DNA of 31,777 nt. It comes from a virus. Lineage: Duplodnaviria > Heunggongvirae > Uroviricota > Caudoviricetes. The notes under the pieces are model-generated. The model saw only the letters and a list, made by a program, of their open reading frames with translations. It was not told the DNA's origin and searched no databases. This document shows positions 7,267-31,721 of this stretch, piece by piece. Where the stretch lies: positions 1 to 31,777 of IMG/VR virus record IMGVR_UViG_3300009174_000004; one strand, 5' to 3'. How positions within the stretch are numbered: position 1 is the stretch's first letter; each line of letters starts with the position of its first letter. The translations under genes were made by a program, and so were the position numbers.

Positions 7267-7449
7267 GTGGCCGTCGGCAGTCATGGAGAGGCGAACAGTT
7301 CCGCTCGCCTCACCGAGAAGAAGGTGCTCGCTATCAGGACCCTCCACGGAGTGGCCGGCATGAGCATCGCAGAACTCGCCCAACGCCTGGAGATCCCCCG
7401 AACGACCGTCCGGGACGTCATCAACCGCAAGACCTGGACCCATATCTAA
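7267..7449 (+). CDS. stand-alone helix-turn-helix DNA-binding protein
   Basis: GEANSSARLTEKKVLAIR...SIAELAQRLEIPRTTVRDVINRKTWTHI resembles the C-terminal HTH of phage HNH proteins; AGGAG SD. Confidence 0.7.
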   Translation: MAVGSHGEANSSARLTEKKVLAIRTLHGVAGMSIAELAQRLEIPRTTVRDVINRKTWTHI

Positions 7450-7760
7450 GAGCACCAGTTTTCGAGCCAGTCGTGTGCCTCGTCGCTGCTTATGAACTTC
7501 TCGGCTGCCCGGTAGGCAGCACCATGGCTCTTGTGGGGACCAAGCTTCACCCCGATGGTGGCACCACCACCAGGCATGGCGACCATCTCGATGTAGACGA
7601 AGAACCGGTCGTTGTAGAGGTTGGGCTCCTGTCGCACCATGATCCGAGGTGGGACGATCGGTTGCCACCTGCTTCGTAGAGGCTTTGACCCTGGACCCAT
7701 CAGCCAGTAGTCGGCCTGGTCACGCAAGGTCCGTTGCCCTAACTTGAGTCCATCTCCCAT
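7446..7760 (-). CDS. hypothetical protein
   Basis: ORF convergent with the HTH gene; start uncertain (ATG 7760 or a TTG overlapping the 7720 stop). Confidence 0.55.
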   Translation of the reverse strand: MGDGLKLGQRTLRDQADYWLMGPGSKPLRSRWQPIVPPRIMVRQEPNLYNDRFFVYIEMVAMPGGGATIGVKLGPHKSHGAAYRAAEKFISSDEAHDWLENWCS

Positions 7761-8076
7761 TGATCTTGACCTCAACCTTGATCTCGTCTTCAGGGGTCTC
7801 GTAGCGCGTAGCCTCTGCCTCGACGGCTAGCTGCTGTCCTAGCGTCCGGCGCAGTCAAAGCTGGAAAGCCGGCGACTCAACCATCTTGCGCCAGGCGATC
7901 TTCCGGTTCTGCCACTGGGTGCGCTCCTCCCGGGACTCGCCCCGAGCGCCTGAGGGATGGTGGATGTAGCGGGCACCGGAGTCCCGCTTGTTCTGGTTCT
8001 GGCCACCCTTGCCGCCAGACCTGAAGGTCTGTAGCTCGCAGTCAGCGGCCGTCACTGACAGGATCTTTGTTCGCAT
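7720..8076 (-). CDS. GGQ release-factor-like / peptidyl-tRNA hydrolase protein, interrupted by an in-frame TGA at 7855-7857
   Basis: FRSGGKGGQNQNKRDSGARYIHHPSG (class I RF domain-3 motif); AAGGGA SD. Frame stays open 44 codons past the TGA. Confidence 0.8.
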
Positions 8077-8093: not shown

Positions 8094-8300
8094 CTAAGTA
8101 GCTAGGGCGCCGGGCCCACGTGCTGGGTCCAGGCCGTGGAACTTGGGCCAACAGCCCGAGCACCTCACTACGCCAGTGTACTCGAAGCAGGCGGCTGCTG
8201 GGGCCCCGCAGTCAGCGCAGGTCCACCAAATGTTAGGCCCCCACTCGGTTTCCACGTATATTCGTCCGTCTGAATATTGGTGCTCGTCACCTACAGCCAT
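8094..8300 (-). CDS. small putative Zn-binding protein
   Basis: CADC and CSGC pairs; AGGAG SD before ATG 8300. Confidence 0.55.
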   Translation of the reverse strand: MAVGDEHQYSDGRIYVETEWGPNIWWTCADCGAPAAACFEYTGVVRCSGCWPKFHGLDPARGPGALAT

Positions 8301-8389
8301 CGATGCTCCTACATGTATCGATGAATGCTCAGGAACTTTACTCTGCCAAAAATTTGGAGGAAGCATCAGCGATGCTTCCTGCGCGCTAT

Positions 8390-8998
8390 CTATAGTAGAT
8401 GTCCGTGCCGCTTCTTGGACATGAGGTAAGCGATAGTCGTTGGAGTCGGCTTCGCGATCAGGGGAACCCTGACCACCCGAATACCTCCAAGTTGCAGCGC
8501 CTCAATCTTTTCTGGGTTATTGGTCAGAAGTCGAATGGACGAGAGTCCAAGACTCTTGAGCACTTCTGGAACTGCGCTGTAGTCGCGGAGATCCGGCGGC
8601 AGTCCAAGTTTGGTGTGTGCTTCATACGTGTCGAGACCTTCCTCGTGCATTAGCCTATAGGCTGCGGCCTTGCGCTGAGCACCAGCGCCCCGCCCATCTT
8701 GGTCGAGGTAGATCAGGACTCCGCCTTGGACAGTCAAAAGCTCAACGCTGCGCCGAAGTTGCCAACCGCAGTCGCATTCGAGTGAGTGCAAGACCTCCGA
8801 GAGCATGCAGCGCGAGTGCACCCGTACGAGGGATCCGTTCTGCGGCGTACCATAAATTGCTGCTATGTCAGCGTCTCGGTGGCCATCCGTCCGAAATTTT
8901 ACCGTTGCAATTGGAAGCTCGCGTCCTTGCACGCTTAGCCTATCGGGGATGACATCATCGACATCCGGAAGCTCGCGTGGGATATTCTGAATGGTCAT
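8390..8998 (-). CDS. ribA: GTP cyclohydrolase II (RibA)-like protein
   Basis: RVHSRC, ECDCGWQL, YLDQDGRG, DLRDY, IRLLTNNPEK, C-terminal GHLL. Confidence 0.85.
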   Translation of the reverse strand: MTIQNIPRELPDVDDVIPDRLSVQGRELPIATVKFRTDGHRDADIAAIYGTPQNGSLVRVHSRCMLSEVLHSLECDCGWQLRRSVELLTVQGGVLIYLDQDGRGAGAQRKAAAYRLMHEEGLDTYEAHTKLGLPPDLRDYSAVPEVLKSLGLSSIRLLTNNPEKIEALQLGGIRVVRVPLIAKPTPTTIAYLMSKKRHGHLL

Positions 8999-11508
8999 TG
9001 CAAAAGTCCTAAAACTCCGAACTCCAGGTCCTGGGTCAGGCCCTGCCAGTAGGACGTGCCACCGACCTTTGTGGACTCATAGCCCATGGCCTTGAGTCGG
9101 TTCTGGTACCGACGCATGCCCAGCGGTATCTGGTGGTTCTCGGTGCAGTAGGCCTCGAACATCCCCCGCAGGATGGACGACTTGATTTGCGCACCAAGCT
9201 GGGGAATCAGTGCTCCGTCCTCGATGCGGTCCCGGACGAAGCACGCAACCATGTCCACGTCGACACGGTAGGCCTCGATGTCCTGGCGTACTGACTCAGG
9301 CTCGGCCAGACCGTAGAGCCGGTACTGCTCCATGCCCTCGATGAGCCAGTTCAGGATGCCGTCGGCCTCCTTCGCCAGGATCTGCGCGTAGCCCAGGCGA
9401 TGACCTTCCATCGTGATGAATTCGGTGTTCATGCTGACGGTCTTGGCACGTTGCCAGAATGCGTTGTCGTCGCTGTTGACCTTCGGCAGGAAGTTGGTGG
9501 CAATCCACACCACGCAGTTGGGGCGCCACTCGCTGTATGCCTCGTAGAGTCCGCGCGAAGTCACTACGTCGCCACCGGTGACCCGCTTAACGAGGTCCTC
9601 ATCCAGTTGCTGACCCTCCGGCATCTCGGAGGTGCAGACGTAGCGTGCTCCTCGGAGCCGGTGCAGGTCAAAGGTCTCGGTGTTCTTCTTGGTTCGGAAG
9701 GTGGACGCTGGTGCTGTCGCCCCGTAGCCACCGAACACGGTGCTCATGACCGAGGTCAGCACGGACTTGCCGGTACCGGAAGGCCCGTGCAGCATGAACA
9801 TGACGCGCTCGTCGGCCTTGCCGGTGAGCGAGTAACCCATAGCCCGCTGGACATAGAGGCGAAGGTCCATGTCCGGGAAAGCGTCCTCCATGAACTTCTC
9901 GAACATCGGACACTGAGCATCCTTGTCGTAGCTGGCGCCCATCTTCTTGGTCATCAACAGCTTCGGGTCGTGCTCGGGGATGAAGGTGTTGTTCTCCAGG
10001 TCCAGGATGCCGTTGGGCAGGTTCAGCAGGTCGATGTCCAGGTTGAACTGGTCGCTGGTGATGGCGATGCCGGGCTCGGTGGCGAACATGGCGATGGCGG
10101 CGTCGATTTTTCCCTTGTTCATCAACGCCGAGGCCCGCGCATACAGCTTGCTCGCGGCCTTGATTTCTTCCTCGTCGCCACGCATCTCGGCCGCCTGCAT
10201 TGCTTGGCCCGCCTGCGTCCGGGCAAACTCGGCACACTCGACGGCAGCACGTTGGATGTAGTTGTGCTCGTCCTTCACCCAGACGGCACCGTCCCACCGG
10301 TACCAGCAGTTTTCCCTGGTGTTGAACCGGAACTCGTCGCCGTGTTGCTGTTTCACTCGCCGTCCGTTACCTACATCAGTAAGGTCTAGACCCGTATGTG
10401 AGGGTAACGATACCTCGACCTCGGCGCCATCGTCGGCAGTCCATGGCACGAGGGCCGTGACCGTGGTTCCGATCGGGTCACCGTAGCCCTGCTGGCGAAG
10501 AGACTTGGCAGCTACGGACAGGTTTCCACCGTGATAGTAGGTGGCGTAGACCATGAACTTGCTCAGTGGGGTTTCCGTTGGCAGGCCAGCCGAGGTGGAG
10601 AAGACGTACAGGCAGTCACTGCCGTGCCGGTAACCCGTGGTAGCAGAGTGTCCGTCCTTAGGGTTTTTGCCAGGACGCACCCAGAATGTCTCGTGACCGA
10701 ACCGGTGGCTGACCTGCCACCCCTGGTCGGTGAACCAGGGTTCATTCCAGTCGGCCTTCTCGTTGAACTCGTCGCCGGGACGCATGCCCAGACCCATGGC
10801 CTGGCGTTGCGCCAACGTTGCTGATGGCTGCGCCGGGGGTGACGTGGGATCTGCTGGTGCCGGCGTGGCATCGAGTGCTGCCGTGATGGCGTTGTGCAGT
10901 GCTACTCGCTGTGACCAAGTGATCTCAGGAATGACACCCTGTTGCCCGGCCACGGTTGACCAGTCATCACCGGTCGGGTGGCACTGGCCCCCGGACGGGG
11001 CCACGATGACGTAGCCGCCTTCGCCTCGGGTCTCGGCCAGCGTCTTCATCAGCCGAGGGTTGCTAGGGTCAGGCTCCTGGGCCAGCTTCGTATTACCGGG
11101 AATATCGTGTTCGGTAATTCGATAAAGGAAGTGGAGGCCGCCGGTCGGGGTCAGTTCTGCGTAGCCGTGGTAGAGGAGCGATTCCCAAAGGTCGATAATC
11201 CCCCGGGCTGCGCACTCCTTCTCTACCTTCTTCAGCGCCTCGGCTGTGGTTGCTGCTGACTCAAGCTCCGTCATTTCCAGGTTGCCGGAAATGGCCCCGC
11301 AGATGACCGCTACTCCGACGTCCTGGCCTTCGCGCCAGTAATGCTCGACCTCGTGCTTCGTCATCCTCGTGCGTTGCAGAACCGACCAGTCCCGAGTCGG
11401 GCGCTTGGTCCCGTTCGCCTGGATCGGGACGACCGAGACGCCTGCCATCCACCACGGGAGAGCGATGTTCTTGTGGGCTACTTGACCCTCGACCACAACA
11501 TCTGGCAT
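8995..11508 (-). CDS. DNA primase-helicase (N-terminal primase-polymerase, C-terminal D5/P4-type SF3 helicase)
   Basis: Walker A GPSGTGKS; RYVCTSE Walker B region; IATNFLPKV motif C; LDLTDVGNGRR and LLNLPNGILDL D5_N-like segments; ETRGEGGYVIVAPS prim-pol motif. Start set at ATG 11508 (GGAG SD). Confidence 0.92.
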   Translation of the reverse strand: MPDVVVEGQVAHKNIALPWWMAGVSVVPIQANGTKRPTRDWSVLQRTRMTKHEVEHYWREGQDVGVAVICGAISGNLEMTELESAATTAEALKKVEKECAARGIIDLWESLLYHGYAELTPTGGLHFLYRITEHDIPGNTKLAQEPDPSNPRLMKTLAETRGEGGYVIVAPSGGQCHPTGDDWSTVAGQQGVIPEITWSQRVALHNAITAALDATPAPADPTSPPAQPSATLAQRQAMGLGMRPGDEFNEKADWNEPWFTDQGWQVSHRFGHETFWVRPGKNPKDGHSATTGYRHGSDCLYVFSTSAGLPTETPLSKFMVYATYYHGGNLSVAAKSLRQQGYGDPIGTTVTALVPWTADDGAEVEVSLPSHTGLDLTDVGNGRRVKQQHGDEFRFNTRENCWYRWDGAVWVKDEHNYIQRAAVECAEFARTQAGQAMQAAEMRGDEEEIKAASKLYARASALMNKGKIDAAIAMFATEPGIAITSDQFNLDIDLLNLPNGILDLENNTFIPEHDPKLLMTKKMGASYDKDAQCPMFEKFMEDAFPDMDLRLYVQRAMGYSLTGKADERVMFMLHGPSGTGKSVLTSVMSTVFGGYGATAPASTFRTKKNTETFDLHRLRGARYVCTSEMPEGQQLDEDLVKRVTGGDVVTSRGLYEAYSEWRPNCVVWIATNFLPKVNSDDNAFWQRAKTVSMNTEFITMEGHRLGYAQILAKEADGILNWLIEGMEQYRLYGLAEPESVRQDIEAYRVDVDMVACFVRDRIEDGALIPQLGAQIKSSILRGMFEAYCTENHQIPLGMRRYQNRLKAMGYESTKVGGTSYWQGLTQDLEFGVLGLLQ

Positions 11509-11568
11509 CTTATCTCCGATTGCAGATAGACGGGCCAACCAGTGACTGGCATCCTGGTCCGCCCGCCC

Positions 11569-16405: not shown

Positions 16406-16474
16406 AGTTATCCTCCTAAATCTATCGATCTATCCTTTTCGGATAGAAGCTGTGTAAAAATCCCAAATAGAGCG

Positions 16475-16547
16475 TGCCCCGAGGCGGACTCGAACCGCCA
16501 GCCTTCGCCTTAGGAGGACGCTGCTCTGTCCGTTGAGCTACCGGGGC
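16475..16547 (-). tRNA. tRNA-Arg(CCT)
   Basis: Cloverleaf GCCCCGG/TCGGGGC, D arm GCTC/GAGC, loop CT-CCT-AA, GGTTCGAGTCC. Confidence 0.9.
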
Positions 16548-25984: not shown

Positions 25985-26562
25985 GGACTAGGGGCACACC
26001 AGCCGGTGCCAGTGCCGCCCTCGATGGCCTCGATCTCGTCGAGCAGGGTGGTGAAGGTTCGGTCCCGATCCTCGGGGGTGTAGAAGAACCCAGCCCACTC
26101 TCCGTCGGGGTCCTCCGGGTACACGTTCAGGCCAGGACGCGGCTCCGCGAAGAAAGTGTGCGGGTACTCCTTACCGGCAGCCAGAGCAGCGTCAAAGTCG
26201 GCCGTGTTCCACAACGGATTGACCAGAGGCAGGTCCACGTCCGGATTCAGGCCGGCTGGACCTAGCTGCAGCGTGGCGCAGCCGTGGCGCATGCGAAAGT
26301 AGAAGCAGCGACCGTCCTTGAGGTGGCCCCAGTGCTGCTCGGGGCAGGCACCACCACCCCAGGACCGCTCAACCCGAGGGTCCGTGATGGTGCTGGGTGC
26401 CTGGCCCATCCAGTACAAGTCGGCCATGTTCCTCACGGTAGCGAAGAGTAGCTCGGTATCCAGGTCCACGTAGCGAGTTCCGGTGTTGATCCGGACATGG
26501 TCAGGATATGAGCCCGACCTGAGACCCAAACGCTCACTCGCCTCGTCCACAGTGGACAGCAT
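25981..26562 (-). CDS. phage hypothetical protein
   Basis: ACPEQHWG..DGRCFYFRMRHG motif; start uncertain. Confidence 0.7.
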   Translation of the reverse strand: MLSTVDEASERLGLRSGSYPDHVRINTGTRYVDLDTELLFATVRNMADLYWMGQAPSTITDPRVERSWGGGACPEQHWGHLKDGRCFYFRMRHGCATLQLGPAGLNPDVDLPLVNPLWNTADFDAALAAGKEYPHTFFAEPRPGLNVYPEDPDGEWAGFFYTPEDRDRTFTTLLDEIEAIEGGTGTGWCAPSP

Positions 26563-26565
26563 CCG

Positions 26566-26640
26566 AGTCGGAAGGGGGAGTCGAACCCCTAGCTTCCAGG
26601 TTTTGCAGACCTGGCGTTATCCGATAACGAATCTCCCGAC
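26566..26640 (-). tRNA. tRNA-Cys(GCA)
   Basis: Anticodon arm CAGGT-CTGCAAA-ACCTG; U73 discriminator; slightly atypical D and T arms. Confidence 0.8.
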
Positions 26641-26798
26641 ACCGGTTCCTCCGGTACTACGTCGAACTCCGGCAGGTTGACGTTGACCATCAGCTTGCCG
26701 AACTTAGCCTTGGCCCAGAGTTGGCGACGCTCCTCGTCGCTGTCCTCTGGGTCGAGGTCCTCGTACTCGAAGGGTTCGAAATGCATCGAGCCGTACAT
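26589..26798 (-). CDS. small acidic hypothetical protein
   Basis: AGGGA SD; protein-like first ~50 aa, but the frame runs into tRNA-Cys. Confidence 0.4.
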   Translation of the reverse strand: MYGSMHFEPFEYEDLDPEDSDEERRQLWAKAKFGKLMVNVNLPEFDVVPEEPVSGDSLSDNARSAKPGS

Positions 26799-26834
26799 CT
26801 ATCCCTACTTCAGTGACTTAAGATCCAGTTTTTG

Positions 26835-26907
26835 CGCCCACAACTGGATTCGAACCAGCGACCTCTGCCTCCGGAGGGCAGCGCTCTTTCCGCTGAGCTA
26901 TGTGGGC
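26835..26907 (-). tRNA. tRNA-Arg(CCG)
   Basis: Canonical cloverleaf; CTGCC-CTCCGGA-GGCAG. Confidence 0.95.
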
Positions 26908-26974
26908 TTGGGTGGGAATGGAGCCGTGACTGGGGACTCCATTCCCGTTCCCCGCTCCGCTAAGAGGGGGAGAC

Positions 26975-27346
26975 CTACCAGCCGAAGCTGATGGAACTGG
27001 CTCGGTCGTTGAACAGGTCAGGCCAGCCCAGGTCGTAGATGTAGGTGGAGGGTCCCAGGGGTACGTGGGCGCCGGTGCAGCCGTATTCGTCCCAGATCGT
27101 GACCTTGAATGAGCGCCGGTTGTCGATGGAACTGATCTGGTTGTTCCAGGAAGCACCGATGTTCAGGCACGTCCAGATCGGCGTGGTGTAGTAGTACATC
27201 GGGTCGCCGCTCATGACGTTCCAGTATGTGCATAGCTGCCCGCTGCTACAGGCAGTGGCCTGGGCCGGTGCTGCTGTCACCGCGAGCGTACCCACGGTGC
27301 CGAGCACCACGATGCCCAACGCAGCCAGAAGTCCCCTGAATCTCAT
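26975..27346 (-). CDS. secreted peptidase-inhibitor-I36 / beta-gamma-crystallin-like protein
   Basis: Signal peptide ending AQA; CSSGQLCTY, WNNQISSIDN, FNDRASSI repeats. Confidence 0.75.
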   Translation of the reverse strand: MRFRGLLAALGIVVLGTVGTLAVTAAPAQATACSSGQLCTYWNVMSGDPMYYYTTPIWTCLNIGASWNNQISSIDNRRSFKVTIWDEYGCTGAHVPLGPSTYIYDLGWPDLFNDRASSISFGW

Positions 27347-27467
27347 GTGGCCCTCTCCATTGGTGGTGCGCCATTGAGACGTGGAAGCTTCTCGGACCTC
27401 CACAGAATGCCTATGGCCCACCGGGGTGGGGCTTCGACATACCGATTGCTACCGAGCGAAGGTGGCG

Positions 27468-27550
27468 TGCCAGTGGAGGGATTCGAACCCCCAAGTCCCG
27501 AAGGAGACGGATTTACAGTCCGCTGAGCCAACCAATTGCTCAACACTGGC
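27468..27550 (-). tRNA. tRNA-Tyr(GTA)
   Basis: GCGGA-CTGTAAA-TCCGT; long variable arm with TTCG loop; A73. Confidence 0.93.
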
Positions 27551-27554
27551 TTGA

Positions 27555-27902
27555 TCAGGTTCTCAGAACAACGACCATCGTAAGGATGGAAAGAACGGTT
27601 GCCACGGCCGAGAGGACTGCGAAGGCGCGGAACCATGGCGACCAGCTTTGGTTCGAGGAGTTGGTTCTTGTCTCTTCGGCAGTACGCAGGGCCTTGGCGG
27701 TGGCGAGGACGGTCAGGGCCGAGGCTTCAGCTTGATCGACAAGGCGCTGGACGTCTAGCCGCATACCGTGGATTTCGCCCACCAAGTCCCCGATATGTCC
27801 GTTGATGGAGGCGAAGTGAGTGTCGTGGTTGGCCAACCTGGCAGCAATCTCTCCAGCAGTAACGCCTCTATCAAAGGCGTCTTGGGGGGTCTCCTCCGTC
27901 AT
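27555..27902 (-). CDS. coiled-coil protein with C-terminal transmembrane helix
   Basis: 115 aa from ATG 27902; TATGAT 6 nt upstream. Confidence 0.7.
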   Translation of the reverse strand: MTEETPQDAFDRGVTAGEIAARLANHDTHFASINGHIGDLVGEIHGMRLDVQRLVDQAEASALTVLATAKALRTAEETRTNSSNQSWSPWFRAFAVLSAVATVLSILTMVVVLRT

Positions 27903-27947
27903 TCCTTGATCATAAGGATCAAGGAGCTTTAAGACTAGATGCCGTTG

Positions 27948-28048
27948 TGCCGAGGACCGGAATCGAACCAGTATGCAGGCGCCCGCTGCAGCGGGCCCAG
28001 TGCGCCGGGTGTACGGCCCGGTGAGCCTCCGGTGGCTCAAACCTCGGC
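27948..28048 (-). tRNA. atypical tRNA-like RNA (nominal GTA anticodon, 32-nt variable region)
   Basis: Perfect acceptor GCCGAGG/CCTCGGC, 5-bp D stem, anticodon stem CCGGG/CCCGG with non-canonical loop CCGTACA, T arm ACTGG-TTCGATT-CCGGT. Confidence 0.7.
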
Positions 28049-28049
28049 T

Positions 28050-28127
28050 TGGGGTGAGTAACCAGCCTCGAACTGGCAACCTCCGGGACCACAACCCGGC
28101 GCTCTAACCGATTGAGCTATACCCACC
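28050..28127 (-). tRNA. tRNA-His(GTG)
   Basis: G-1, C73, encoded CCA; CCGGG-TTGTGGT-CCCGG. Confidence 0.93.
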
Positions 28128-28137
28128 GCGTTCCATC

Positions 28138-28455
28138 TTACGCCCCGTGCCCCTGCCGCATCTTGGCGATGATCTCTGGATCATCCTTGCGATGCCGTGG
28201 TGCATCAGGATCACCTTCGCCGTGGTTGACACGCCAGACCGACCACTCGGTGGCCATGGTTCGGATGTCGTCCACGTACTCGGGGTCCATGCCGAGGTCC
28301 TGGCACCGGTCGGCGTAGGCCTGCAACGCCTTAGGGGCAGCCGGGTCAGCGGCACCTAGGACGAAGTAGGGCCACTCCGGAACACTGCCGTCCCGGCGTT
28401 GGACCAGGTACTTACCCTCGCGGGTGCCCTCTGTGTTGCGCCAGAGCCTTGCCAT
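28138..28455 (-). CDS. phage hypothetical protein
   Basis: GGGGAGG SD; GKYLVQRRDG, YFVLGAADPAAPKALQAYA motifs. Confidence 0.75.
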   Translation of the reverse strand: MARLWRNTEGTREGKYLVQRRDGSVPEWPYFVLGAADPAAPKALQAYADRCQDLGMDPEYVDDIRTMATEWSVWRVNHGEGDPDAPRHRKDDPEIIAKMRQGHGA

Positions 28456-28704
28456 GGGGGCCTCCCCGTCTAGACGAACGAACTGAACGCGGCAACCTCG
28501 ACCTTCGGTACCTCGACGGCCTCGCACATTAGTCGACGGACCACAGCCTGGGCCTGGTCAGCGGTGATCTGACTCAAGGGAAGTCGCTGTACCTGCTTGA
28601 GTGATGCGAGGACGTTACTCGACGGAACGACAACGACGTCCATGGATGCTCCTCAGTTTGCATGTAGTGTCCAAGTCTAACGCCAAGACGGTGGTGACCC
28701 TGTC

Positions 28705-28794
28705 TGGGGCGCTCACCGGGAATCGAACCCGGACCTTCAGGGCCACAACCTGACGTGCACGGGCCAAGGCCTCTGCCAGTACACCATGAGCACC
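28705..28794 (-). tRNA. tRNA-His(GTG) with enlarged D loop
   Basis: G-1, C73, CCA; TCAGG-TTGTGGC-CCTGA; 22-nt D loop containing GGCC-TT-GGCC. Confidence 0.85.
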
Positions 28795-28795
28795 G

Positions 28796-28868
28796 TGGAC
28801 CCGGATGGACTCGAACCATCGATTTCCTCTGTGTGAAAGAGGGGCCTTAGCCGCTTGGCCACGGGTCC
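28796..28868 (-). tRNA. tRNA-Val(CAC)
   Basis: CCTCT-TTCACAC-AGAGG; A73. Confidence 0.88.
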
Positions 28869-28879
28869 TGATCTTTAGT

Positions 28880-28988
28880 GATAGCGAGGTATCGCGCAAA
28901 CACCATTTACGCGGCTAGGTCTTCTCGTCTGTCGCCAGACGCTTAGGGACTCCGTGGGATTTTCCTACCCTCTCGGGACCTCGCTACC
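28880..28988 (-). ncRNA. structured RNA candidate between tRNA-Ile and tRNA-Val
   Basis: 11-bp closing stem GGTAGCGAGGT/ACCTCGCTATC, GNRA hairpins CCC-GAGA-GGG and CGTCTG-GCGA-CAGACG, 8-bp hairpin CGCGTAAA/TTTGCGCG. Confidence 0.65.
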
Positions 28989-28989
28989 G

Positions 28990-29064
28990 TGCGCCAGGTG
29001 GGAGTTGAACCCAACCACGTTCTGCTTATAAGGCAGACCCCACCGACCGGATGGGCTCTGGCGC
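28990..29064 (-). tRNA. tRNA-Ile(TAT)
   Basis: Perfect acceptor GCGCCAG/CTGGCGC; TCTGC-CTTATAA-GCAGA. Confidence 0.85.
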
Positions 29065-29156
29065 AGGTTCCCTCGTGTCTGTGCGGCGCTACGAGAGTCG
29101 AGCGCCCCTCCCTTATGGCACGGGAGGTTCCCGCCGGTGCACCTGGGCGGGCCAGT

Positions 29157-29504
29157 CTATTGGGCACTGTTCCGGATCATCAGGTTTCCCTCGACCCGGA
29201 GGTTGCCAGTCACCTTATGGCCGGCGAGAATGAGTGCCGAGTACATCTGAATCTGCGCCTGGTGTCCGTTGCGAATCCCTACGAGGCGCCGGTACTGATG
29301 GCTTTCGCGTAGTAGCGAGTCTGCCATGTAGCTGTCAGGCAGAAGGGTTTCGTCAGAACGCTCCATCCGTCCCATCTGCTGATAAACACCCTTCGCGGCT
29401 GCTACACGTTCCATTTCCTCGATCTGCGCCTGCAGGCGCTCGGCCTGGTCGGCGTGCCACGACATCTTCTGATAGTTGGTTTCTTGTCCGATAGCTGTTC
29501 CCAT
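29157..29504 (-). CDS. hypothetical protein
   Basis: 115 aa; GGAGAAG SD. Confidence 0.6.
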   Translation of the reverse strand: MGTAIGQETNYQKMSWHADQAERLQAQIEEMERVAAAKGVYQQMGRMERSDETLLPDSYMADSLLRESHQYRRLVGIRNGHQAQIQMYSALILAGHKVTGNLRVEGNLMIRNSAQ

Positions 29505-29522
29505 TACTTCTTCTCCACCGAG

Positions 29523-29918
29523 TTACTCTAGGAAATCGTTGTTCGTACGCTCAGGGCCACAAGCATCGAACAGTGGCTTGAGCGTCTTGGGCAGTTCCAT
29601 CCGTGGCATGGGCCTGATGCCACGCCGCCTGGCGCAGAACAGGAGTGGTCCCATCCACTCATCAGCGTCAGGATCAGCGACTTGTACATCAGCCACGGCC
29701 TGCTCCAGGTTCTCGACGTTGCCCTGCGTGATCTCCTCCACGTCCGCTGTGGCCCAGAAGAAGATGTCGTTGCAGATCACGAAGAACCTGATGTTCCCGT
29801 CGTCCATTCGCCAGAACAACATGTCGTGACTGTCCAACCTGGAGAATAGATCCAGGACTCGGGTCATGAAGACCTCGTTGTCGGTGACGATGTTATTGAT
29901 GTCAATGGTCCTGGCCAC
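29523..29918 (-). CDS. phage hypothetical protein
   Basis: GGGGAGG SD; CNDIFFWATAD and LFCARRRGIRP...FDACGPER motifs. Confidence 0.75.
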   Translation of the reverse strand: MARTIDINNIVTDNEVFMTRVLDLFSRLDSHDMLFWRMDDGNIRFFVICNDIFFWATADVEEITQGNVENLEQAVADVQVADPDADEWMGPLLFCARRRGIRPMPRMELPKTLKPLFDACGPERTNNDFLE

Positions 29919-29937
29919 GACCCCTCCCCTTTTGGTG

Positions 29938-30011
29938 CTCCCCCGACTGGATTCGAACCAGTAACCGTCGCCTTAACAGGGCGCTGCTCAGGCCAATTGA
30001 GCTACGAGGGA
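29938..30011 (-). tRNA. tRNA-Asn(GTT)
   Basis: Loop CT-GTT-AA; G73; canonical D and T arms. Confidence 0.92.
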
Positions 30012-30232
30012 ATGTGTATGAATCGATCGCTAACGTCGTTGCCATGGTCAGGACAAGACACCTCGGGCTCATCCCAACAGTGCATATGGCACCCGTCGCA
30101 ATCGTACGGGCACCACTCTTCGGCGTGCCTCAGGTACTCCTCTATGGCGGCAGCTACAGGTCCGCGAGGAGTGTCACCCTCCAGTCTTGCAGCCTCGTAG
30201 GCAAGCTCCAGTGCCTTCTTATCGATATGCAA
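30002..30232 (-). CDS. small Cys/His-rich protein
   Basis: AAGGAG SD before TTG; CPYDCDGCHMHC...CPDH; stop codon lies inside tRNA-Asn. Confidence 0.55.
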   Translation of the reverse strand: MHIDKKALELAYEAARLEGDTPRGPVAAAIEEYLRHAEEWCPYDCDGCHMHCWDEPEVSCPDHGNDVSDRFIHIPS

Positions 30233-30314
30233 GGTCCTGCTCCTTGGAGGATTGAACCTGGGCCAGGCCTGCTTTGGATTCTGTGCGGCAGTATCCGCGT
30301 GCCTGACCCAGGAG

Positions 30315-30388
30315 TGCAGTCGACGGGATTCGAACCCGCACCCTCCGATTTGAAGGACCGGCGACCTGACCAGTTGGTCTACGACTGC
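30315..30388 (-). tRNA. tRNA-Glu(TTC) with C33
   Basis: CCGGT-CCTTCAA-ATCGG; perfect acceptor GCAGTCG/CGACTGC. Confidence 0.8.
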
Positions 30389-30389
30389 G

Positions 30390-30464
30390 TGCCCGCACCA
30401 GGATTTGAACCTGGAAACCTTCTCCGTGTCATAGAGATGCTCTACCAAGTTGAGCTACACGGGC
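30390..30464 (-). tRNA. tRNA-Val(GAC)
   Basis: TCTCT-ATGACAC-GGAGA; A73. Confidence 0.9.
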
Positions 30465-30513
30465 ATTGGGTGAGAGTGGGGGCACACCCCGGCTCCCAGG
30501 ATGTGCCCCCTCG

Positions 30514-30588
30514 TAGCGGGGGGAGGATTTGAACCTCCGACTTCTGGGTTATGAGCCCAGCGGGCTGTCCGAACTGCCCTACCCCGCG
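30514..30588 (-). tRNA. initiator tRNA-fMet(CAT)
   Basis: C1:U72 mismatch; three consecutive G-C pairs in the anticodon stem; CT-CAT-AA. Confidence 0.93.
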
Positions 30589-30597
30589 TCGCACTAC

Positions 30598-30930
30598 CTA
30601 GGGTAGCACGGGCTGAGGGTCATGCTCCTCAGCAAACTTGTTGAGGTACGCCAGGATCTCGTCCTTGGTGCGGTTCTCGTCGTCGTTCCAGTCGGCCAGG
30701 TCATGGGAGCCGGTGGGACCGCCTGGGATGACACCAAGCGAGGCCATCCAGTCGATGAACTTTTCCTCTTCCTTGCTCGACGGCATGGCGGCGATACCCC
30801 AGGTCACGAGGTTGAAGGCGCATCGTATACAGACGGCCTTGTCTTCCCCCTCCCAGCCGCCCTGGTGCCAGCCGCGCTGCTCGATGACGGCTGCTGCTCG
30901 TCGGGCAACCTGCCCCGCCTGCTTGCTCAT
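30598..30930 (-). CDS. phage hypothetical protein (DUF6197-like)
   Basis: RGWHQG...VCIRCA...WNDDENRTKDEI; GGAGGAG SD. Confidence 0.7.
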   Translation of the reverse strand: MSKQAGQVARRAAAVIEQRGWHQGGWEGEDKAVCIRCAFNLVTWGIAAMPSSKEEEKFIDWMASLGVIPGGPTGSHDLADWNDDENRTKDEILAYLNKFAEEHDPQPVLP

Positions 30931-30947
30931 AGCTTCTCCTCCAGGGT

Positions 30948-31559
30948 CTAGGCCAGGTTGAATCGGTTGTTGGTCAACTGGACCTGACATACGAACCGGT
31001 TGGGTGGCATTGCGATGTCCTGCATCACCGGTGCGCCCAGGATATGGATCCTGCAGGCGAGCGCCAGGTGGCTTGCTAGATCGAACCGGTCGTTCTTAGC
31101 CAAGTAGGTGGCCGTCAGTTCGATCTTGTACGTGGGAGGTCGACCCTGGAACCGTTCCAGGGTCGGGTCGTAGTCGAAGGACACGAACCCTTGCCAGGGT
31201 GTGCTCGTGGTGAGGGTCACCGTCGCCGGAAGGTTCCGTCTGTTGTCCACGGCCAGGTCAGGATCCGTCACACTCTTGGTGTAGGAGACCTCCACCGGGA
31301 TGCAGTAGTTGGAGTCCAGGTCCTGGCTAAGAGCAACGACGCTGAGCCCGTAGGTCACCCAGTTGTGTCCTGGCGGTGTGTCTGCCGGCTTGTCGAGGTT
31401 CGGGTCGCTGGGAGGCGGCGCATCCGGCTGTGCACATGTTGCTGCACCTTGTGGCTCGTCGCTGGGCACCGGATTCCCCCAGAAATCTACGCCGGGTGAA
31501 CATGCGGACAGGATAAGAATGGACATGGCCAGCGCCATGATCCTGTATAGGTATCTCAC
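30948..31559 (-). CDS. lipoprotein
   Basis: Signal peptide with lipobox LSAC, then a Pro-rich linker and beta-rich domain. Confidence 0.75.
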   Translation of the reverse strand: MRYLYRIMALAMSILILSACSPGVDFWGNPVPSDEPQGAATCAQPDAPPPSDPNLDKPADTPPGHNWVTYGLSVVALSQDLDSNYCIPVEVSYTKSVTDPDLAVDNRRNLPATVTLTTSTPWQGFVSFDYDPTLERFQGRPPTYKIELTATYLAKNDRFDLASHLALACRIHILGAPVMQDIAMPPNRFVCQVQLTNNRFNLA

Positions 31560-31560
31560 G

Positions 31561-31635
31561 TGATCCGGGTGGGATTCGAACCCACGTAACTCTGCTTAAG
31601 AGGCAGGCCCATAACCAGGCTTTGGGTACCGGACC
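31561..31635 (-). tRNA. tRNA-Lys(CTT)
   Basis: CTGC-CTCTTAA-GCAG; GGTTCGAATCC; A73. Confidence 0.88.
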
Positions 31636-31647
31636 GTACTTGTTGCG

Positions 31648-31721
31648 TGGATCCCCGGGGACTCGAACCCCGACACCTCAGCTTAAAGGGCTGCTGCTCT
31701 GAACCATTGAGCTAGGGATCC
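31648..31721 (-). tRNA. tRNA-Lys(TTT) with C33
   Basis: GCAGC-CCTTTAA-GCTGA; perfect acceptor GGATCCC/GGGATCC. Confidence 0.85.

Follow-up and report, generated by a model that had tools for sequence, protein, structure and literature searches.

An in-frame UGA at a conserved tryptophan codon recurs among phage genes for a GGQ-domain protein and is probably a programmed read-through site

A soil phage gene predicted to encode a small release-factor-like GGQ protein is interrupted by an in-frame UGA, which sequence comparisons indicate to be recurrent among relatives, linked to its flanking bases and followed by sequence under purifying selection. We consider it likely that this UGA is a programmed read-through site, decoded in frame as tryptophan, which would limit the supply of full-length factor and tie it to the efficiency of termination. 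About a quarter of the related phage genes carry this interruption in an identical context, which argues for a selected read-through site rather than a broken gene.

The gene was found in a stretch of 31,777 nucleotides, referred to here as the window, which makes up the initial 31.8 kb of an IMG/VR virus record (G000; 95.8 kb, 61.5% G+C) rated complete. Replication genes of this phage genome are similar to those of Arthrobacter and Mycobacterium phages; a scan of genome contigs yielded mostly RF1, RF2 and ArfB genes of cellular origin, without any clue to the host. The GGQ frame is opened by ATG 8076 on the minus strand, contains the motif RSGGKGGQNQNK and reaches TGA 7857-7855 after 73 codons, with CTT (7860-7858) before the stop and CTG (7854-7852) after it. 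Past this TGA, frame 0 remains open for another 44 codons (7854-7723), up to a second TGA at 7722-7720. The features of the gene are as follows.

7858-8076, minus strand: N-terminal 73 codons of the GGQ (RF-1 domain, PF00472) gene, translated from ATG 8076 to CTT 7860-7858
7855-7857, minus strand: in-frame UGA at residue 74 (the Q of GGQ plus 48), placed by alignments and found as TGA in 13 other fetched loci
7851-7860, minus strand: extended context CUU-UGA-CUG-C, in which -1 is U and +4 is C, from the comparison of TGA and TGG genes
7723-7854, minus strand: putative 44-codon read-through extension, based on homology, dN/dS, the lack of an in-frame start and an AlphaFold (AF2) model
7720-7722, minus strand: terminal TGA of the full-length form, coinciding with the ends of the homologues

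The terminal TGA (7722-7720) has C as its next base and G as its preceding base, unlike the internal stop, which has T before it. Around the gene, the window contains the following.

8995-11538, minus strand (as the GGQ gene): primase-helicase
8390-8998, minus strand: GTP cyclohydrolase II (PF00925, E 2e-42), flanking the GGQ locus
8094-8366, minus strand: ORF of 90 codons containing several pairs of Cys, immediately upstream of the GGQ gene
7446-7700, minus strand: next gene downstream of the GGQ gene, from the ORF list and frame scores
6037-6729, plus strand: ThyX (PF02511, E 9e-52), flanking the GGQ locus

Neither the Cys-rich ORF nor the downstream gene had a match in Pfam or PHROG. The latter probably starts at ATG 7700, because 7723-7854 scores as coding only in the frame of the GGQ gene.

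Residues 7-68 of the product match Pfam RF-1 (PF00472; E 1e-14; 54 bits against a cut-off of 35), with the motif GGKGGQNQNK. If Trp is placed at the TGA, residues 2-113 are covered by PHROG 3122 ('RF-1 domain peptide chain release factor'; profile positions 21-131 of 136, E 3e-35). Models of RF1, RF2 and PrfH align with domain 3 only, far below their cut-offs, and the 118-residue full-length form contains no codon-recognition domains (RF domains 2 and 4). These matches place the protein in the actinophage 'RF-1 domain' family (PHROG 3122) of stand-alone GGQ proteins, in which the predicted catalytic, peptidyl-tRNA-hydrolysing domain of a class-I release factor occurs without the codon-reading domains. 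By domain content, its predicted function is that of a codon-independent peptidyl-tRNA hydrolase. Genes of this family accompany tRNA arrays (PMC5966550). A second PHROG of the same name, phrog_20323, has a profile of only 73 positions and may derive from interrupted genes that were called as truncated ones.

We used an AlphaFold model of the GGQ protein (mean pLDDT 86) to place the stop in the predicted structure. The model comprises a GGQ domain (1-67), a single long helix (69-92) that includes Trp-74 and a confident C-terminal beta-hairpin (101-112), and its closest structural matches are domain 3 of RF2 and of RF1. The extension encodes the remainder of the modelled helix together with the hairpin; as the UGA falls within helix 69-92, termination there would cut inside the helix and lose the hairpin.

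Annotated homologues from the mycobacteriophages Bxz1, WXIN and YoungMoneyMata have a length of 113-120 residues and share 47-52% identity with the window's protein, and the 44-codon extension aligns with the C-terminal part of such full-length relatives. Where these three read FQ[LV]-W-LKRQ, the window reads FQL-stop-LRR, with Trp at the position of the TGA. Trp-74 is kept in at least 90% of 81 full-length database relatives, and the motif P-x-x-[LIV]-K-[VI]-E-[VI]-K-x-x-G-[RK]-W is retained in the interrupted genes. In codon usage, the extension scores 0.25 per codon, where the genome mean is 0.30 and the alternative frames score -0.75 and -0.30, and it appears to be more than a chance open frame. 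An initial, sequence-only reading of this DNA had placed a TGA in the local sequence CTT TGA C (7860-7854), which we confirmed, and had given F-x-x-W-L as the motif of homologues at this point, which proved correct. Its proposal that TGA replaces a conserved TGG agrees with the near invariance of Trp at this codon in full-length relatives, and the 44 in-frame codons that it had pointed out beyond the stop are borne out by the codon-usage score, the C-terminal motif and the continuation of PHROG 3122 across the stop. It had also suggested aligning homologues for TGG versus TGA; both occur at this codon. Among database proteins, those with 96-99% identity to the N-terminal part from the window are 73 amino acids long and share its start, while a 95% identical protein (P0005) is full-length with Trp. 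Thus, both states alternate over short evolutionary distances.

We next examined how often the interruption recurs. In IMG/VR, 3 of 66 related loci carry an in-frame TGA, two at the Trp-74 codon (L012 and L025) and one at another Trp, 12 codons upstream (L033). Among 80 metagenome loci, TGA was found at the Trp-74 codon in 11 and at the upstream Trp site in 2. Besides the window, the fetched loci therefore include 13 with TGA at the Trp-74 codon and 3 with TGA at the second position. The interrupting stop is TGA in all 17 loci and TAG in none; TGG to TGA and TGG to TAG are one transition each. At the protein level, at least 31 of the best 120 homologues in a collection of 5.8 billion proteins are 73-91 residues long and end at the F-x-x before the Trp; these are known from their protein sequences. 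Several representatives of separate 50%-identity clusters also end just before the Trp. The approximately 208 homologues from cultured phages all appear uninterrupted, including those of Nanosmite and Tunturi_3, which are intact although each match extends over two annotated features; metagenomes are thus the only known source of the TGA form. In a protein tree, one clade with 96% support contains 11 TGA and 18 TGG sequences, interleaved, and at least 4 changes between TGA and TGG are required if well-supported branches alone are counted, and 10 in the best tree.

The bases on either side of the stop differ between the two forms. Among unique high-GC genes, T precedes the codon in 11 of 12 TGA genes and in 0 of 53 TGG genes (Fisher 1e-11); within one well-supported clade, the corresponding counts are 10/11 and 0/18. 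The codon before TGA is CTT, GTT or ACT, with a single exception, ACC (L100). The upstream Trp site follows the same pattern, with GCT before TGA and GCC, GCG or GCA before TGG. In the window's genome, 7% of TGG codons are preceded by T. Paired comparisons across TGA/TGG changes all point in the same direction for T at -1, but the 4 pairs available are too few for significance in a sign test (p about 0.125). On the 3' side, CTG follows the stop in 12/12 TGA genes, compared with 13 of 54 genes with a sense codon at the site. TTG, which is synonymous with CTG and is used by TGG relatives, never follows TGA, suggesting that the conserved feature is C at +4 rather than a potential start codon. According to crude gene calls in the window's genome, C also stands at +4 of 12 of 39 ordinary TGA stops, including the final stop of the GGQ gene itself, so that C at +4 alone cannot suffice. 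Poole, Brown and Tate reportedly described C at +4 as the weakest UGA context in E. coli; for a weakening effect of U at -1 on UGA termination in bacteria, we know of no established mechanism.

In pairs of TGA-bearing genes, the segment after the stop appears to be under purifying selection. Its dN/dS is 0.29 between the window and L076 (8 synonymous and 8 non-synonymous changes), 0 between the window and L077 (6 synonymous and no non-synonymous changes), and 0.09, 0.08 and 0.15 within the group of L085, L092 and L101. Together, recurrence, covariation of the context and purifying selection after the stop support the earlier proposal that the full-length form needs in-frame read-through.

We then considered how the UGA might be decoded. 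Stop usage over 105 called genes of the 95.8-kb genome is 39 TGA and 42 TAG, the most frequent; these calls, which were also used for a scan of extensions, come from a crude codon-usage heuristic. Among the called genes, that scan found a start-less, coding-scoring extension behind the stop only in the GGQ gene. Using ARAGORN, we found no tRNA with a UCA anticodon in the whole of G000, in G002 or in the partial G001 and G003. Both complete TGA-bearing genomes, G000 and G002, encode a tRNA-Trp(CCA), located in G000 at 39971-40043 among 37 tRNA genes, a set that runs to about 40 kb and lies partly within the window.

16474-16547 and 26470-31721, minus strand: 14 tRNA genes

Genome-wide recoding of UGA was rejected, as TGA is a normal terminator here, a single called gene is interrupted and no tRNA(UCA) is present. 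An ARAGORN 'SeC(tca)' call in the TGG-bearing genome G004 is probably spurious, being antisense to a tRNA-Leu. The tRNA-Trp genes themselves do not separate the two forms: pair 11-24 is U11-A24 in G000 (TGA) and G004 (TGG) and C11-G24 in G002 (TGA), and all the phage tRNA-Trp have 5-bp anticodon stems, so that a Hirsh-type A24 or a 4-bp anticodon stem was discarded as the cause. This phage and its TGG-bearing relative G004 also encode an amber-suppressor-like tRNA(CUA) (G000 38907-38979, minus strand; also L074 15120-15194, minus strand). Further odd tRNA-like genes were called by ARAGORN in related phages (L074 18836-18912, minus strand; L073 6383-6456 and 9967-10039, plus strand), among them one with a four-base anticodon (ctaa) and two with shortened anticodon loops.

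These data bear on the alternative that UGA is read efficiently as sense, through a dedicated suppressor tRNA or an altered code of host or phage, with no real gating of the product. Such decoding would account for every interruption being a TGA at a Trp position, as expected where UGA means Trp, and the phages do carry large tRNA sets that include the tRNA(CUA). We nevertheless regard it as unlikely: the two complete TGA-bearing genomes lack a tRNA(UCA), 39 of the 105 called genes end in TGA, as does the GGQ gene's own extension, no second gene in the genome is interrupted likewise, and a cognate tRNA would make the tight context needless.

Alternatively, the gene could be split, with termination followed by reinitiation at the CUG behind the stop, giving a C-terminal piece that then assembles with the GGQ piece. 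The invariable CTG is compatible with such an arrangement, as is the ATG or GTG found 7-9 codons downstream in some TGA-bearing genes. However, the extensions of the window's gene and of L076 contain no in-frame ATG, GTG or TTG, the absence of TTG after TGA is unexpected given that TTG is a far better initiator than CTG, and the codons between the stop and the later starts are conserved, with synonymous changes only. The break would also fall within the single predicted helix 69-92. On this evidence, a split gene is quite improbable.

We assign a similarly small probability to a translational hop, in which peptidyl-tRNA-Leu would leave the CUU and re-pair at the CUG, skipping the UGA and yielding a protein without Trp-74. 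Hops over stops at such matched sites are known in E. coli, and the take-off and landing codons (CTT and CTG) match in the window and 6 other unique loci. In the remaining loci, however, GTT, ACT or ACC before the TGA leaves no matching landing codon, and since Trp-74 is nearly invariant in the family, the deletion product of a hop is unlikely to be the selected one.

A recent nonsense mutation, a pseudogene or a sequencing error, which had initially seemed just as plausible as a functional site, now appears very unlikely. The change from TGG to TGA needs only a single transition, and the cultured relatives all appear to carry TGG, but the same change, always to TGA, is present in many independent assemblies and lineages, its flanking bases covary with it and dN/dS after the stop is well below 1. 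Just as unlikely is a recoding event of another kind, either a +1 frameshift as in prfB or the insertion of selenocysteine, for which UGA also serves as a codon. The earlier likening to the prfB shift site holds for the heptanucleotide, which is identical, but not for the other elements: there is no GGAGG-like, Shine-Dalgarno-type stimulator in the 27 bases upstream of the TGA, and the +1 frame closes after 5 codons while homology continues in frame 0. In addition, the prfB frameshift was found in none of 2,658 actinobacterial genomes, and M. smegmatis shifts at about 6% at the motif (bioRxiv 10.1101/2024.09.24.614795). As for selenocysteine, the site has no SECIS or other Rfam match, homologues have Trp rather than Cys, and no conserved hairpin was seen; the 60 nt after the stop fold like shuffled sequences (z near 0) in TGA and TGG genes alike, which also gives no sign of a stimulatory hairpin.

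For programmed read-through as tryptophan, we propose the following sequence of events. At the UGA, a ribosome would hold peptidyl-tRNA on an NNU codon in its P site, while RF2 and Trp-tRNA(CCA) compete for the stop. Most ribosomes would probably terminate, releasing a 73-residue fragment that lacks most of helix 69-92 and the hairpin. A minority would decode the UGA with the near-cognate Trp-tRNA(CCA), which is also phage-encoded, and translate 44 codons more to give a 118-residue protein identical to the product of the TGG allele. Trp is inferred as the inserted residue, and over-expression of tRNA-Trp(CCA) raises UGA read-through in E. coli (PMC13092985). The U before the stop and the CUG after it are taken to weaken RF2-dependent termination, and a G:U wobble pair in the P site may underlie the preference for U at -1. 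The site would keep the full-length factor scarce, with a yield that rises under slow UGA termination or with plentiful tRNA-Trp.

It is plausible that the site senses RF2 activity in this way. More tentatively, the structure-free element U-UGA-CUG might turn the Trp codon of a codon-independent hydrolase into a sensor of UGA termination, with TGA and TGG as settings of an evolutionary dial, in Actinobacteria that lack RF2 autoregulation. If so, more full-length rescue factor would be made when RF2 is limiting or the phage tRNA-Trp is abundant, which would link a phage protein resembling release factors to how efficient termination itself is.

We found no description of this read-through site in the published literature, and few programmed read-through sites with good support are known from bacteria and their DNA phages. 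The defining context is very short, and natural 'on' (TGG) and 'gated' (TGA) alleles exist side by side, which makes the site directly testable. A concrete rule for the 5' side of leaky UGA codons in high-GC bacteria, U at -1, also emerges from the comparison. Among the close homologues found, about one in four is probably annotated as a truncated protein of 73 amino acids, and the site is also of relevance to gene calling in phage genomes from metagenomes.

The closest known relatives are the PHROG 3122 proteins of cultured phages, such as Bxz1 gp200 and ScottMcG gp204, which belong to the same family over their whole length (47-52% identical) and differ in that those examined are annotated as uninterrupted genes. 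Our literature search found no biochemical work on this family. ArfB, ICT1 and mtRF-R are likewise small GGQ proteins without codon recognition, making peptidyl-tRNA hydrolysis on stalled ribosomes the likely, predicted activity of the phage protein. It nonetheless lies outside ArfB as defined by the NCBIfam model NF006718, scoring 26.6 bits against a cut-off of 100 over residues 4-35 only, and its C-terminal part is predicted to form a helix and a beta-hairpin instead of the basic tail expected of ArfB.

With regard to decoding, the coat/A1 gene of phage Q-beta is a case of programmed UGA read-through by tRNA-Trp. It resembles the GGQ gene in having a leaky UGA, a near-cognate tRNA-Trp, and a short and a C-terminally extended product from one gene. 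Because the UGA of the GGQ gene lies at a Trp codon inside one conserved protein, however, read-through there would restore the ancestral protein rather than add a new domain, and the family contains both interrupted and uninterrupted alleles.

Another comparable system is prfB, encoding RF2, which is also a release-factor-family gene with an in-frame UGA in an identical CUU-UGA-C context, and in both genes the yield of full-length protein should depend on the efficiency of UGA termination. The two differ in that the phage gene would use in-frame read-through instead of a +1 shift, without a Shine-Dalgarno-like stimulator, and in that its UGA takes the place of a mid-protein Trp codon and is polymorphic with TGG among close relatives. 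The presumed hosts, Actinobacteria, also lack the prfB frameshift. Being distinct from RF2 and devoid of a codon-reading domain, the phage protein would exert no direct feedback on UGA recognition. What is new here is a TGA/TGG polymorphism, together with a short flanking-context rule, in a GGQ-only protein of 118 amino acids.
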